Of a stretch of DNA of 64,000 nucleotides, positions 1 to 53,336 are shown piece by piece. Within the stretch, counting starts at the first letter, position 1. Each line of letters begins with the position of its first letter. The DNA is from Bacillota bacterium (GTDB lineage Bacteria > Bacillota > Clostridia > TANB77 > CAG-508). The stretch covers positions 587-64,586 of the forward strand of contig CAWVEX010000045.1 of the NCBI GenBank assembly GCA_963928415.1, given 5' to 3'. Below the pieces are notes generated by a model that did not search any database, was not told the DNA's origin, and saw only the letters and a list, made by a program, of their open reading frames with translations. A program made the translations under genes and the position numbers.

Positions 1-681
1 GGAATAATATATGTAGATTTAGCTGACACTGTAAATACAAGCGGTAGATGGAATGATAATGATTGGTCTGACTGGGAATATACACCAGTAACAGAAGGTT
101 TAAAACAATATGAAATAATTAGTAAAAGCTTTACAGGTTTTGGAGGACAATGGACAAAGCCTGTACTAAAAAAGATAGATGGAAGTGAAGGTGCAGATAG
201 ATTTTATGTAATGGCATTAGAAGATATAGACAATGAAACACATTATTGGTGGAAGGATGCTTATGGTAAGCTAGATTCAACTTACAATGTAGAAGAAACA
301 GCTATCGATTTTACAAAAGATAACTCAAAACCTACAGGACTTGTAAACACAGAAAGAATGATGGAATGTTATAAAAACGGAGAAATAAATGGAACAACAG
401 TATTAAAAGATGATAATGATATGTGGGGATTAATACAAAATGAAGTAGATGCAGGCTGGTTTGTACCATCGAAATCAGAATGGGCAGCATTTGGAACATT
501 TGCATATGATGAGCTAGGCGTTAATACAAATAATTATCCTGAATATGGACTTAGTGATTGGTACTGGTCTTCTTCGCAGTTCGATGCTGGCCTCGCGTAC
601 TACGCTCTCTTTCGCGATGGGTATGTCAGCAGCGTCATTGTGTACGGCGGCCGTTATGTGCGTCTGAGCACGACTTTCTAA
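1..681 (+). CDS. 5'-truncated surface/secreted protein with a C-terminal DUF1566/Lcl-like (C-type-lectin-fold) domain. The last ~120 nt form a candidate DGR variable region.
   Basis: The reading frame is open from base 1 through the stop at 679-681, so the ORF-track start at 211 is an internal Met. The C-terminal motifs (GWFVPSKSEW...YWSSS...YVRLSTTF) resemble the DUF1566 family. An abrupt composition switch occurs at 559. Confidence 0.6.
   Translation, partial: GIIYVDLADTVNTSGRWNDNDWSDWEYTPVTEGLKQYEIISKSFTGFGGQWTKPVLKKIDGSEGADRFYVMALEDIDNETHYWWKDAYGKLDSTYNVEETAIDFTKDNSKPTGLVNTERMMECYKNGEINGTTVLKDDNDMWGLIQNEVDAGWFVPSKSEWAAFGTFAYDELGVNTNNYPEYGLSDWYWSSSQFDAGLAYYALFRDGYVSSVIVYGGRYVRLSTTF
559..678 (+). 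other. Candidate diversity-generating-retroelement variable region (VR) with an IMH-like GC tract (cggcggccg) at its 3' end.
   Basis: This 120 nt tract is ~55% GC in a 28% GC genome. Adenine is ~12% and there are no AA dinucleotides. It is dominated by NNC codons (tac, ttc, ggc, agc, gtc, ctc) encoding Y/S/G/F-rich sequence. It sits at the extreme 3' end of the ORF. Confidence 0.45.
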
Positions 682-703
682 TTTTGTAAAAAATTAGAAA
701 ACA

Positions 704-771
704 GCACGTTATGTAAATAACGTGCAAACAGTCAAATCGAGAATGCTTCATAAGAAGCTCTCGATTTGACT
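704..771. other. Two consecutive stem-loops immediately downstream of the VR-like tract: an 8 bp stem at 704-725 and a 13 bp stem with an inner 5 bp stem at 730-771.
   Basis: The inverted repeats GCACGTTA/TAACGTGC and AGTCAAATCGAGA/TCTCGATTTGACT are perfect. Neither is followed by a T-run. Confidence 0.5.
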
Positions 772-928
772 TAAAAGTATATAAATAATGGAAAATATGA
801 ACAGATATAATATTTTAAGATTGTATACTACTTATTTAGTATACAATTTTTTCTTTTTCCTTGGTTCTTTTTTAGTCCTTAGTGCATATATATTATTAAA
901 ACATAATTTTTAGGAGGTAAAGGACAAT

Positions 929-3806: not shown

Positions 3807-4008
3807 ATTATAATGTTGATTTCTTAAATAAAAAAAGTTTTTATTTCACATATAATGTATCAAAGAAGAAATTATTTCATATTAATTTAATATATTAAAA
3901 TCTAAAAAAAATCAAATAAAAAATTGAAATTAAATAAAATCCTATGTTAAAATAATAAAGTAATTAAGATTGTAATAATCTAATTTTATTATTAAATAGG
4001 TGGAAAAA

Positions 4009-8107: not shown

Positions 8108-8138
8108 CCCCAGAGCAAAAACTCTGGGGAATTTTGTT
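8108..8138 (+). terminator. Rho-independent terminator after rpsI.
   Basis: CCCCAGAG-caaaaa-CTCTGGGG followed by a T-run. Confidence 0.7.
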
Positions 8139-8169
8139 ATAAAAAAGTAGTTGTTATAAAACAGTTACT

Positions 8170-8466
8170 TTAATTATCATCACTATATAAAAGAATTTCT
8201 TCTAAATTTTCATCTTCCAATAGAGAACCTTTTATACTACCTGTAGTTATTATATCAACATCTTTATCTAAAGCTTCTTCTAATGCAAATTTAACTTCCA
8301 CAATCTTAAAACCATCAGCTACATCTTCAGTTCTTACGATTATGTCAATATCACTATCCTTTTTTTGTTTCTTCTTTGCGTAAGAACCAAATAACCAAAT
8401 ATGTTTCAAATTGTATTTTTTTGCAACAGGTTCAATTTTCTTTTTTATTTTATCTATTTCTGACAT
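8170..8466 (-). CDS. Minimal nucleotidyltransferase (MNT) antitoxin of a HEPN/MNT toxin-antitoxin pair.
   Basis: The LFGSYAKK...DSDIDI nucleotidyltransferase motif is present. An RBS AGGTG lies 6 nt before the ATG, immediately after the HEPN stop. Confidence 0.75.
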   Translation of the reverse strand: MSEIDKIKKKIEPVAKKYNLKHIWLFGSYAKKKQKKDSDIDIIVRTEDVADGFKIVEVKFALEEALDKDVDIITTGSIKGSLLEDENLEEILLYSDDN

Positions 8467-9967: not shown

Positions 9968-10354
9968 TTATTGCTTCTTTATTTTTGGTTTAGCTAATAA
10001 GGAAGCTATATATCCAAAGAAAATTGCAGCAGCAATACCACCACTTGCAGCTTTAACTCCACCTATAAACGCTCCAAGTAGACCTTGAGTTTGAACTGCT
10101 TCCATAGCACCTTTTGCTAAATTTGCACCAAATCCAAATAGGGGAACAGTAGCACCACAACCAGCAAAGTCTATAATATATTGGTAAATTCCAAGACCAC
10201 CTAAAATTGCACCAGTAGTTACAAATATAACTAGTATTCTAGCAGAGGTAAGTTTTGTTTTATCTATAAGTAATTGACCAATTATACATATTAATCCACC
10301 AACAATAAAGCATCTTAGCATTAGTCCCCAATCAATACTTTGTAAAAAATCCAT
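9968..10354 (-). CDS. spoVAEb: Stage V sporulation protein AEb (SpoVAC/SpoVAEb family).
   Basis: A small polytopic membrane protein in the SpoVAC/SpoVAEb family; third gene of a spoVAC-AD-AEb trio. Confidence 0.8.
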   Translation of the reverse strand: MDFLQSIDWGLMLRCFIVGGLICIIGQLLIDKTKLTSARILVIFVTTGAILGGLGIYQYIIDFAGCGATVPLFGFGANLAKGAMEAVQTQGLLGAFIGGVKAASGGIAAAIFFGYIASLLAKPKIKKQ

Positions 10355-15978: not shown

Positions 15979-16335
15979 ATGAAAAAGTATTCTAATGAAA
16001 AAGGTGTAACATTAATTGTTTTAGCAATAACAATAGTAGTTCTATCTATAATTGCAGGTGTGGTAATATCATTTAATTATAATGATAATGCAGTTAAAAA
16101 TATAGCTGAAGACAAAAAAGAAGAAACTGAAAAAATGCTTATTTTAGAAAGTATAAAATTAAACCTTGTAGAAAATCCACCTGAAAATTATGAGAATTTA
16201 ATCAGCTATTTAAATAATTATGGAAAAATTGAAAATGAAGATGATGAAAATAACGCTATTTTAATTACTAATCAAGGAAATTATGAAATATATGTAAAAG
16301 ATATTTGGAATATAAATAAGCAAAATATAGATTAA
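15979..16335 (+). CDS. Type IV pilin/pseudopilin-like protein. It has a prepilin-type N-terminus, EKG|VTLIVLAITIVVL, in which valine replaces the usual glutamate at position +5.
   Basis: A short basic leader is followed by Gly and a hydrophobic helix. 118 aa; RBS GAAGGAGG. It is the first gene of the Tad-like operon. Confidence 0.5.
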   Translation: MKKYSNEKGVTLIVLAITIVVLSIIAGVVISFNYNDNAVKNIAEDKKEETEKMLILESIKLNLVENPPENYENLISYLNNYGKIENEDDENNAILITNQGNYEIYVKDIWNINKQNID

Positions 16336-16465
16336 ATAAAGTCAAATATTACAAATATTACAAAAATATTAAAAAAAAGTAATAATAGACAAAAATATTG
16401 TTTTTATTTGTTCTATGATATAAAATTTAAAAGAATATTTAAATAAGTTTAAGGAGGAAATCGCA

Positions 16466-17401
16466 ATGGCAACAATGAATCCATTGGAAAGAAAAGCAAG
16501 GAATTCGTTTATAAAAGGAGCAATTTTAGCTGGATTAATAGGATTAATTTTTATAATCATTTTAGGAATAATAATTATGAGAATGAGAGGAGAAGAGCAA
16601 GCAAGATTAGATGCTCAAAAAAATGTATATGTATTAAGAGGAGCTGTACAATCAGGTACAGTGTTAACTCAAGATATGTTTACAACTGTTGGAGCAGATG
16701 CTAATGTAGCACCTAGTGATGCTTTAACAGCAAGTGTATACAATACACTAGCTTTCGATGAAGAAGGTAATCCATTAGAGATTGTTGCAAAAATAGATAT
16801 AGCAGCAAATACAATAGTAACAGCTAGTATGATAACAACTTCAGATAATATAAATACTGATGATGTAAGAGAAGAAGAATATAATATGATATCACTTCCA
16901 GCAGATTTAGAAACTGGAGATACTGTAGATGTAAGATTAAGAATGCCTGATGGAACTAACTATATAGTTGTATCTAAAAAGAAAGTTACAGTATTAGATA
17001 ATGCAGGTATTCCATCTGTAAATACAATTTCATTAGAACTTTCAGAAGGAGAAATTCTTATGATGAGTAATGCAATTGTAGAAGCATATATGATGGAAGG
17101 AAGCAGATTATATTTAACAAGATATGTTGAACCTGGTATGCAAGCAGGAGCAATTACAACTTATGTACCAAATGGAGAAGTTCAAAACTTAATTGCTCAA
17201 AATCCAAATATAGTTAATGAAGCTAAACAAGAATTAATTAACAGAATAAATAATTATGCAGGATTAAACAGAACAAATATAAATGATGAGTTAAATACTA
17301 TAGATCCTGAAGATAGAACAGATGCTGTAACTAGTGGTACTACAACAGAAAATAGTGATGCACAAGATGCTAGACAAAGTTACTTAGATTCTATGCAATA
17401 A
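16466..17401 (+). CDS. CpaB/RcpC-like Flp pilus assembly protein (N-terminal TM plus an SAF-like domain).
   Basis: A TM segment is followed by VYVLRGAVQSGTVLTQDMFTTV, an SAF-like motif. Position and size match CpaB. Confidence 0.55.
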   Translation: MATMNPLERKARNSFIKGAILAGLIGLIFIIILGIIIMRMRGEEQARLDAQKNVYVLRGAVQSGTVLTQDMFTTVGADANVAPSDALTASVYNTLAFDEEGNPLEIVAKIDIAANTIVTASMITTSDNINTDDVREEEYNMISLPADLETGDTVDVRLRMPDGTNYIVVSKKKVTVLDNAGIPSVNTISLELSEGEILMMSNAIVEAYMMEGSRLYLTRYVEPGMQAGAITTYVPNGEVQNLIAQNPNIVNEAKQELINRINNYAGLNRTNINDELNTIDPEDRTDAVTSGTTTENSDAQDARQSYLDSMQ

Positions 17402-17448
17402 AATTTAAAAAGTAATCCAAATGATTAAAAAAATGAAAGGAACTTACA

Positions 17449-18129
17449 GTGGAACAAATAGGTTTTGTTGGAGTAAATGACAAAAAAGATTTTTTGCTAA
17501 ACATAGCAAAAGTTATATCAAAATTAAATAAAAGTGTATTAATTGTTGATAGTACAGTTATGCAAAGACTAAGATACTTAATACCAAAGGTGTCATCTAC
17601 TCCTACATATGTAAGTGAGTATGACGGAGTAGATGTAGCCGTTGGATTTATGAATCTAATGCAAATAAGTTCATATTTAGGTATGCCAAACTTGAATTAT
17701 GATTATGTACTAATAGATACAGATAATCCTCAGACATTTAATTCTTTTATGGTACAAAACTCAAAAAGAAATTTCTTTTGCACATCATATGATGAATTTG
17801 AACTTCAAAGAAGTTTGGAGATACTAGGAACATTGAGAACACAAATTAATTTAACTAAAGTTATAATATCATCTGATTTAAATAATAAACATGATGAATA
17901 TTTAAATCATTTATTAGAAAATTATCCAGTAGCATGGAGCAAAGAAATTATAGAAATAGCTGATACTGATGAAGATAGAAATGCAACACTTACAAATCAG
18001 CTTACTAAACAAATCAGCATTAAGAATTATTCATCGATTTATAAGGATGGATTAGAATATTTAATATCACTGATATTAGAGGGGCTTATACCTCAAGGTG
18101 ATATTAGAAGAATTATTAGGAGAAAGTAG
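17449..18129 (+). CDS. Degenerate MinD/ParA-fold protein (pseudo-ATPase, lacking a Walker A P-loop).
   Basis: IGFVGVNDKKDFLLNIAKVISKLNKSVLIVD aligns to the ParA N-terminus, but the KGGxGKT P-loop is replaced. The Walker-B-like YDYVLIDTD is retained. GTG start with an RBS. Confidence 0.5.
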   Translation: MEQIGFVGVNDKKDFLLNIAKVISKLNKSVLIVDSTVMQRLRYLIPKVSSTPTYVSEYDGVDVAVGFMNLMQISSYLGMPNLNYDYVLIDTDNPQTFNSFMVQNSKRNFFCTSYDEFELQRSLEILGTLRTQINLTKVIISSDLNNKHDEYLNHLLENYPVAWSKEIIEIADTDEDRNATLTNQLTKQISIKNYSSIYKDGLEYLISLILEGLIPQGDIRRIIRRK

Positions 18130-18141
18130 AAAGGTATAAAA

Positions 18142-49952: not shown

Positions 49953-50038
49953 TTTATTAAATTACAGACAAAGTGTTAAATGCTAAATAATTTTTTTTTG
50001 AACTACACTCAAAGTTAAAAATATTTAAGAAAAAAATT

Positions 50039-50067
50039 AACCCAAAAAGGGGCGTCCCCTTTGGGTT
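50039..50067 (-). repeat. GC-rich palindromic repeat, copy D (exact reverse complement of copy C).
   Basis: AACCCAAAAAGGGGCGTCCCCTTTGGGTT, with an 86 bp AT-rich spacer between C and D. Confidence 0.6.
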
Positions 50068-52508: not shown

Positions 52509-53336
52509 ATGGGAACAAAGAAATTTAGACCAATTACTCCATCACTTAGAGGAATGGCTGTATCAGATTTTTCTGAAATAACAAAAAAGACACCTGAAAA
52601 ATCTTTACTAGAAGTAAAGAAATCAAAAGCAGGAAGAAATGCACAAGGAAAAATTACAGTTAGACATCAAGGTGGCGGAAACAGACAAAAATATAGAAAA
52701 ATTGATTTCAAAAGAAATAAATTAGATATGGAAGCAGAAGTACTTGGAATTGAGTACGATCCAAATAGAAGTGCAAATATAGCTTTAATCAAATATACAG
52801 ATGGAACACTTTCATATATATTAGCTCCAAAAGGATTAAAAGATGGAGATAAAGTTATATCAGCAGATACAGCAGATATCAAACCTGGTAACTGCTTAAA
52901 ATTAGAAAATATACCAGTTGGTACATTAATTCACAATGTAGAAATTAATCCAAACCAAGGTGGTAAATTAGTAAGAGCAGCTGGACAATCAGCTCAATTA
53001 ATGGCTAAGGAAGGTAAATATGCTCATTTAAGATTACCATCAGGCGAAATGAGACTAGTTTTAGCTTGTTGCAAAGCAACAATAGGTGTTATAGGAAATG
53101 AAGAACACGAAAACGTAAAACTAGGAAAAGCTGGTAAAACAAGACACTTAGGAGTACGTCCTACAGTTAGAGGTTCTGTAATGAACCCAGTTGATCACCC
53201 TCATGGTGGTGGTGAAGGTAAAGCACCAGTTGGTCACGCTGGACCAATGACTCCTTGGGGCAAACCAGCACTTGGATATAAGACAAGAGCAAAACACAAA
53301 AAATCAAATAGATTAATTACAAAGAGAAGAAAATAA
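52509..53336 (+). CDS. rplB: 50S ribosomal protein L2.
   Basis: L2 similarity. Confidence 0.95.

Follow-up and report, generated by a model that had tools for sequence, protein, structure and literature searches.

The prototype of the diversity-generating retroelements (DGRs) is that of Bordetella phage BPP-1, in which the mtd gene with its variable region (VR) is followed by avd, the template repeat (TR) and brt. Homing of BPP-1 requires a GC-rich hairpin/cruciform of 7–10 bp with a GRNA loop, located 4–34 bp past the VR (PMC3240598). DUF1566 is the commonest Pfam domain of DGR targets, and "putative pilin structures" are also among these targets (PMC6642488). G-type pilin domains holding a VR were found to be rare in a 2024 survey (PMC11661182), and DGRs of Bacteroides diversify the tip adhesins of type V pili (bioRxiv 10.1101/2024.11.15.621889). 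We found no literature link between DGRs and type IV pilins in Clostridia. Here, we analyzed a 64-kb stretch of DNA (hereafter the window) from an uncultured, low-GC, spore-forming gut bacterium of the Clostridia, together with the adjoining part of its source contig and related loci in other genomes.

The window begins inside an open reading frame (ORF), which is open in frame 1 from position 1 to a stop codon at 679–681. The initial annotation had described the 3' end of this ORF as adenine-poor, GC-rich and free of AA dinucleotides. A composition count of positions 559–678 gave 12.5% A, 55.8% GC and no AA dinucleotide, whereas the background of the whole window is 41.5% A and 27.8% GC. When all 120-nt segments of the 64 kb were scanned, this tract was both the lowest in A and the highest in GC. 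An A content below 15% was observed solely in segments starting at 543–569, and a GC content above 48% solely at this tract and at 53130–53186. The composition profile jumps at about 550–650, and the majority of the codons in the tract have C or another non-A base at the third position. Thus, the description holds, and the ORF tail lies far outside the background of the window itself.

The 226-aa fragment encoded in the window matches the C-terminal part of P0001, a protein of 336 aa, with 100% identity; the contigs that carry P0001 reach 1.56 Mb in length. On the source contig (L001), window position 1 corresponds to position 10331, and the two sequences differ by one mismatch in 10,681 nt (window position 3880). 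This contig contains a chromosomal cassette between the sporulation genes veg and sipL, with the gene order pilin-like target 1 (with its own VR1), Avd-like gene, TR, reverse transcriptase (RT) and pilin-like target 2 (with VR2). Target gene 1, a paralogue encoding 334 aa, is located upstream of the window at L001 7252–8256 and is followed by the Avd-like accessory ORF (154 aa; L001 8323–8787). The TR is an intergenic, adenine-rich segment of 129 nt at L001 8921–9049, which is 1,281–1,409 nt upstream of window position 1. The RT ORF (138 aa; L001 9097–9513), a truncated gene, lies 48 nt downstream of the TR. It is separated by about 490 nt of AT-rich DNA from target gene 2, which starts at L001 10001. 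The 3' two-thirds of target gene 2 (codons 111–336 and the stop codon) occupy window 1–681 on the + strand.

Within the 64-kb window itself, no template repeat was detected above background, either by ungapped scans with and without adenine wildcards or by a repeat search, and no homologue of RT or Avd was found (tblastn best E = 0.46), in agreement with the initial annotation, which had placed the RT and the TR outside the window. Comparison of window 1–800 with phage genomes gave zero matches, and Rfam models matched nothing but a tRNA in the window and in L001 6500–11400.

VR2, at window 550–678 (+ strand), spans the last 43 codons of target gene 2 and aligns over its 129 nt without gaps to the TR. 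There are 28 mismatches between the two, 27 of which fall on adenines of the TR, which has 44 A among its 129 nt (hypergeometric P = 3.4e-15). The substitutions in VR2 include 15 A>G, 8 A>T and 4 A>C, and all 27 affect codon position 1 or 2 only. The TR is rich in AAC/AAT codons, has LSDWYWSSSQNNTNNAYNANFNNGYINNNNVNNNNYVRLSTSF as its translation and follows the classic AAY design: all of its 44 adenines belong to AAY codons and are confined to the first and second codon positions. The changes are concentrated in a mutagenised core of 74 nt (window 580–653, + strand), in which 27 of 36 template adenines have been substituted. The near-identical, adenine-rich template repeat proposed as a check on the initial annotation was therefore found, 1.3 kb upstream of the first position of the window. 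This adenine-specific match, together with the flanking Avd-like and RT genes, bears out the proposal of a DGR variable region, and we consider it almost certain that window 550–678 is a genuine one.

The GC content of the tract (56%, twice the genome average) and the presence of three copies of the segment within 3 kb might instead suggest an origin outside any retroelement, either by horizontal transfer of GC-rich DNA or by gene conversion that homogenised decaying, duplicated gene ends. However, the differences between the non-coding and the coding copy are almost completely restricted to adenines of the non-coding copy (27 of 28, P = 3e-15) and to codon positions 1 and 2, the non-coding copy has an Avd-fold gene on one side and an RT gene on the other, and the same adenine pattern recurs in several species. 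The adenine specificity of the TR/VR2 pair and its recurrence in relatives refute such an origin, whose probability we regard as negligible.

In five related loci (L010, L011, L014, L019 and L020), 17–25 TR/VR mismatches were observed at A versus 1–4 at other bases. Relatives of P0001 show 85–96% identity to this protein outside the VR and 42–65% inside it, and VR differences between lineages sit at Asn-encoded positions. A comparison of strains had been suggested in order to see whether variability is confined to the tract; this is the case between lineages, but the VR is identical among close variants (see below). The tract shows that composition alone, i.e., adenine depletion, NNC codons and a jump in GC content within a low-GC genome, can reveal a DGR variable region.

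The only TR/VR2 difference that does not involve a template adenine is at window 674, where the TR has G and the VR has C. In all VR/TR pairs examined, from seven or more loci, this base was C in the VR and G in the TR. Because of this uniform split, base 674 appears to behave as an IMH/IMH*-type marker rather than as a random mutation. It belongs to an invariant, IMH-like 3' end of 24 nt that is common to VR and TR, TATGTGCGTCTGAGCACGA[C/G]TTTC (window 655–678, + strand), and TR/VR homology stops abruptly after 678. The initial annotation had assigned the IMH to cggcggccg instead. This assignment was rejected: the motif is at 644–652, inside the mutagenised core, where the TR reads aacaacaac, and thus it is a product of A-to-G/C mutagenesis.

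VR1 is also derived from the same TR. It has four further changes at non-adenine positions, together with an insertion of 3 nt, and so is older or else no longer serviced. VR2 has no non-adenine change beyond the universal marker at 674.

Two strong stem-loops had been noted downstream of the tract, both of which exist: hairpin 1 (window 704–725, + strand), folded as a 9-bp stem with a 4-nt loop, GCACGTTAT gtaa ATAACGTGC, and hairpin 2 (window 730–771, + strand), with an interrupted stem of roughly 18 bp and an apical loop that reads ATAA, as opposed to GTAA in the majority of relatives. However, a third one, which overlaps the stop codon, had been missed. This hairpin A (window 675–700, + strand) has an AT-rich stem of 10–11 bp, TTCTAATTTT / AAAATTAGAA, and a GTAA loop; it begins in the last codon, spans the stop and abuts the exact end of the TR/VR homology. 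DNA folding of positions 660–790 gave −34.6 kcal/mol versus −10.0 ± 2.4 for shuffled sequences (z = −10.2). When the sequences that follow nine VRs of different loci were aligned, compensatory changes were seen at 11 of 34 pairs: four pairs in hairpin 1, several in hairpin 2 and a single one (T-A to C-G in L014) in hairpin A. Hairpin A is invariant after every VR examined, including VR1, the decaying copy, from which hairpins 1 and 2 have disappeared. The loss of these two hairpins at VR1 fits a possible role of the hairpins in target competence.

The three hairpins could also serve the target gene in transcription termination or mRNA stability and have nothing to do with DGR target recognition. 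They sit directly past the target stop codon, in L005 and L006 they are located between the target gene and avd, and their stem and loop features are unlike the BPP-1 consensus (PMC3240598). On the other hand, no T-run was found on the + strand after any of the three, which led us to reject them as intrinsic terminators on that strand. Moreover, hairpin A adjoins the end of TR/VR homology and does not vary from VR to VR, and the VR that lacks hairpins 1 and 2 is also the one with non-adenine changes and an indel. We consider a function restricted to the target transcript possible but lean toward a role of the hairpins in DGR target recognition.

The product of target gene 2 (336 aa) has a prepilin-like N-terminus, which is encoded upstream of the window. 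Its AF2 model (pLDDT 86.9) contains two long N-terminal helices (residues 23–45 and 50–82) and, in the middle, a beta-rich domain; the domain at the C-terminus has the C-type-lectin (CLec) / Lcl_C (DUF1566-type) fold. The protein also contains the CLec motif pattern WYWSS...AY.A.F..G...VRL. No Pfam or NCBIfam family matched the target protein above threshold. For Pfam Lcl_C (DUF1566; PF07603), whose gathering threshold is 34.9 bits, P0001 had no match and the best score, 13 bits, was that of the L014 homologue. The name "DUF1566-like" given to this gene is thus right as to fold but not as to membership in the Pfam family.

The N-terminal sequence, KG followed by ITLIALVVTIIVLLILAG, resembles a prepilin methylation motif. 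It gave a sub-threshold match to N_methyl (16.7–17.2 bits versus a cut-off of 21.2 bits) and has Ala instead of Glu5. One homologue of the target is named "type II secretion system protein" by NCBI. Presumably, the target is a surface adhesin carried on a type-IV-pilin-like N-terminal helix, which would be displayed on a pilus. Separately, a divergent type-IV-filament-like cluster was observed at 16–31 kb of the window, and in L005 a gene for a prepilin peptidase lies downstream of what remains of the RT, at a distance of about 1.2 kb.

The accessory protein did not match any Pfam or NCBIfam family above threshold, and a profile search against PDB sequences was also empty. Its AF2 model (pLDDT 82.3) is a helical bundle, and the protein is of the Avd-like four-helix-bundle type.

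An upstream search for RT and Avd genes had also been proposed; both genes were indeed found to flank the TR, but the RT is truncated. An intact member of the family, the 380-aa RT of L014, matches RVT_1 (E = 8e-17). Among solved structures, its best match is 8ub7, the DGR RT of a Bordetella phage (E = 1.2e-16), which ranks above a group II intron maturase. This intact relative contains the motifs IGNLT[A/S]Q and YVDD and is 28–35% identical to phage RTs, including those of Bacteroides phage F2 and Bordetella phages. The ORF at L001 9097–9513 aligns to residues 1–124 of the L014 RT and to residues 1–126 of the frame-corrected RT of L005. This stump retains about 126 homologous residues, lacks motifs A to C and the catalytic YVDD palm, and gave no Pfam or NCBIfam family above threshold.

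Homology between the L001 RT and all of its relatives ends at L001 9474–9486, and the segment at L001 9576–9835 matches the leader upstream of target genes in other loci. The break and the leader match show that a rearrangement has fused "leader + target 2" to the first third of the RT gene. An exact 135-aa gene call for the stump (the same ORF with a downstream start codon) was found on seven contigs from NCBI and ENA, some of which exceed 1.5 Mb; therefore, the truncation is not an assembly error. Because the stump is devoid of motifs A to C, the cassette as encoded here is unable to reverse-transcribe, i.e., to make cDNA, by itself.

In species-representative MAGs, a scan with a TR-derived pattern identified five related cassettes, each of them in a bin whose annotation is uncultured Clostridia (four BRZ_* and one Lapin-013), and further loci were added through Avd-based look-ups. 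One additional hit of the pattern scan, L012 (Paludibacteraceae), was discarded as a chance match in unrelated sequence that has no TR, VR or RT. In the related strains L002 and L003, only a single target gene, sometimes frameshifted, is present between veg and sipL, and there is no cassette on the contig.

Intact RTs were detected beside an Avd homologue in L014 (ORF with RVT_1) and in L017 and L018 (378 aa, gene-called, RVT_1); L019 has an intact 339-aa RVT_1 call, and the RT of L020 is intact up to the contig end. Degraded RTs were found in L009 (residues 293–321 only remain), L011 (a deletion and a frameshift), L013 (121 residues; its TR has an 18-nt deletion), and L015 and L016 (which have lost both the TR and the 5' half of the RT). 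L010 was counted as neither intact nor degraded. The estimate of RT decay was based on loci found by TR pattern or Avd only. L005, whose RT has two frameshifts, and L006–8, which have lost the YVDD region in frame and lack a TR, were left out because they were reached via RT fragments, a sample biased toward broken RTs. RT decay is frequent in this family: it affects about half of the loci sampled without this bias, in which Avd, TR and VR are still recognisable. A separate search for homologues of the RT stump listed 100 matches, all of at most 238 aa, which might be taken to mean that the RT is systematically split or decaying. We rejected this reading as a search artefact, since the intact RTs of L014, L017/L018 and L019 are missing from the matches. 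The decay of RT genes in cassettes that retain Avd, TR and VR is relevant to surveys in which DGR activity is deduced from TR/VR pairs alone.

By analogy with the established DGR pathway, the RNA of the TR would be copied by an RT–Avd complex into cDNA, with misincorporation opposite adenines. We infer that information flows in the direction from TR to VR, the cDNA replacing the VR under the guidance of the common invariant 3' end (655–678) and probably also of the hairpin(s) directly downstream. In this way, as many as 18 Asn codons could be rewritten in the part of the gene that encodes the ligand-binding face of the CLec-fold domain. The rearrangement has removed the catalytic YVDD palm from the local RT, and VR2 is most likely the frozen product of a last homing event that was fairly recent.

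VR2 is identical in P0001, P0221 and P0222 (nine contigs; proteins at least 90% identical), despite differences elsewhere in these proteins. No VR heterogeneity was observed among these close variants, and the VRs differ only between lineages. We think that VR2 is probably frozen at present and that it records past diversification. The absence of non-adenine changes beyond the marker means that inactivation was recent or that an RT encoded elsewhere acts in trans.

In the latter case, the DGR would still be active on VR2, with the intact RT of a second cassette in the same genome supplying the cDNA. Several observations are compatible with such a situation: VR2 is "clean" in that each of its 27 informative differences falls on an adenine, the RT stump adjoins an intact Avd ORF and an intact TR, and family members with intact RTs exist in L014, L017, L018 and L019. 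In addition, L005 contains a 94–99% similar cassette (Avd 97%, TR 99%) in another chromosomal context, so one genome could hold two cassettes. However, the RT of the L005 cassette itself has two frameshifts, no second cassette is present in the 64-kb window or in the 10 kb upstream of the target gene, and the same VR is found on all nine contigs whose proteins are at least 90% identical. Ongoing activity in trans is thus unlikely. A DGR variable region that is now frozen is, as a joint explanation of the data, likely the best one.

A more speculative and quite improbable scenario is that the RT-less cassette is alive as part of a larger system. In such a system, conserved Avd+TR modules and several pilin-like lectin genes of these gut Clostridia would be served in trans by any cassette with an intact RT, and the three-hairpin, GTAA-loop module after each VR would be the signal that decides which targets stay "writable"; VR2 has this module, and VR1, which has lost two of the hairpins, is decaying. 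If true, this would represent a distributed DGR of Gram-positive anaerobes in the gut, which diversifies the lectins at the tips of their type IV pili.

Compared with described systems, the element characterized here, with VR2 read as a genuine but probably frozen variable region, is an ordinary member of the DGRs and leaves the view of how they work unchanged. As in the BPP-1 prototype, the TR and VR differ specifically at adenines, the target has a CLec fold and bears the VR at its 3' end, the repeats close with an invariant segment that includes a base discriminating VR from TR, and an inverted repeat lies directly downstream of the VR (PMC3240598); moreover, the best solved structure for the RT family is bRT 8ub7. 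In contrast to BPP-1, the element is chromosomal rather than phage-borne and has two flanking targets, its IMH-like end is one base off the TR counterpart, and the RT is truncated in the present genome. The hairpin at the position analogous to that of BPP-1 has an AT-rich stem and a GTAA loop and is followed by another two conserved hairpins.

DUF1566 targets of the Legionella LdtA type and the Treponema TvpA type have the same C-terminal CLec fold and WYWSS...AY.A.F..G...VRL pattern. However, the N-terminus of the present targets is prepilin-like instead of a lipoprotein or TAT signal, and the Pfam Lcl_C threshold is not reached here. The type V pilus DGRs of Bacteroides and the fimbrial protein of Bacteroides ovatus (4eps) are similar in that a lectin-fold module diversified by a DGR is placed on a pilus-type protein of a gut bacterium. 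The carrier here is a type IV (prepilin-type) pilin-like protein of a Gram-positive Clostridia bacterium and not a type V pilin of Bacteroidota. The locus thus adds a well-resolved DGR with type-IV-pilin-like, lectin-tipped targets in uncultured gut Clostridia, a class that surveys treat in passing.

The state of the RT gene was compared between two sets of related loci from other contigs (L005, L006–L008, L009, L011, L013, and L015/L016 versus L014 and L017–L020). Breakage of the RT gene is frequent in this DGR family and was found throughout the first set, where the damage takes the form of frameshifts, 5' or 3' truncations, or an in-frame deletion of the YVDD region. In some loci with a broken RT the TR has gone as well. 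The 153-aa Avd-like ORF is usually intact and highly conserved. One example is the Avd-like protein P0338, found on 137 contigs beside an RT whose 5' half is missing. Among the matches listed for the RT stump in a search for homologous proteins, every one was a fragment, none longer than 238 aa or with a Pfam match. The idea that the RT is always split in this family proved wrong, however: the same collection has contigs with intact RTs of this family that are RVT_1-positive, which did not appear among those matches.

Upstream of the DGR cassette, and outside the window, lies the paralogous target that carries VR1. Together with its downstream region, VR1 occupies positions 8122–8298 of the ENA contig L001. 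VR1 differs from the TR at five non-adenine positions (four beyond the shared marker) and by a 3-nt insertion in VR1. Hairpin A is retained downstream of VR1, but hairpins 1 and 2 have been deleted, which places avd nearby. The VR1 target thus looks to have left service earlier than VR2.

A conserved leader was detected upstream of target gene 2, also outside the window (L001 9576–9835, 495–754 nt upstream of window position 1). It recurs upstream of the targets in L017 and L018, and is also present at positions 2668–2881 of L005. The leader is made up of a sigma-70-like promoter and an RBS together with a short ORF (ATGAWAATYGCTRAAAGCCTTGNGGCTGTA) that contains a small hairpin. This ORF enters a dinucleotide repeat, which in L001 is (CA)n with some 18 units and in the other loci is (TA)7–9, and the repeat is followed by a terminator-like hairpin with a T-run. 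No match for the leader was found in Rfam. For the pilin-like genes it may be a leader that is phase-variable or acts as an attenuator.

In two related strains, whose nucleotide identity with the window is about 91%, a single target gene lies between veg and sipL (L002 9788–10580 and L003 1–2055), and no DGR cassette was found on either contig. The target gene of L002 is frameshifted into two ORFs of 64 and 205 aa, and in L003 the contig edge upstream of the target gene is taken up by a 272-aa non-RT ORF. Either the cassette is absent from these strains or the two paralogues were collapsed by short-read assembly. In L019 (1–10477), an intact cassette of the family adjoins genes for a phage-type integrase, an HTH regulator, and a Mob_Pre relaxase, and these neighbors suggest that the DGR is able to travel on an integrative mobilizable element.

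Two other features of the window were observed. Over 10,681 nt the window and L001 differ only at window position 3880, where the window has T and L001 has A; this position falls between genes in AT-rich sequence. Two distant intergenic sites (31065–31157 and 50011–50065) share a palindromic, GC-rich element (CCCAAAAAGGGGCGTCCCC...); it corresponds to repeat D5 and inverted repeat I7, and is probably a shared bidirectional terminator.

The window also contains a gene cluster (15979–31045) which in appearance is a divergent type IV filament or Tad-like system. Its members include a small protein whose prepilin-like N-terminus is the same as that of the DGR target (15979–16335), a SAF-domain protein (16466–17401), an ATPase of 634 aa that matches T2SSE close to the threshold (19030–20934), four paralogues of repeat family D1 that start with MENA[ST].A (23129–25971), and a transglutaminase-like protein (29987–31045). 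This type IV filament-like cluster could be the assembly machinery for the DGR-diversified pilin-like proteins.
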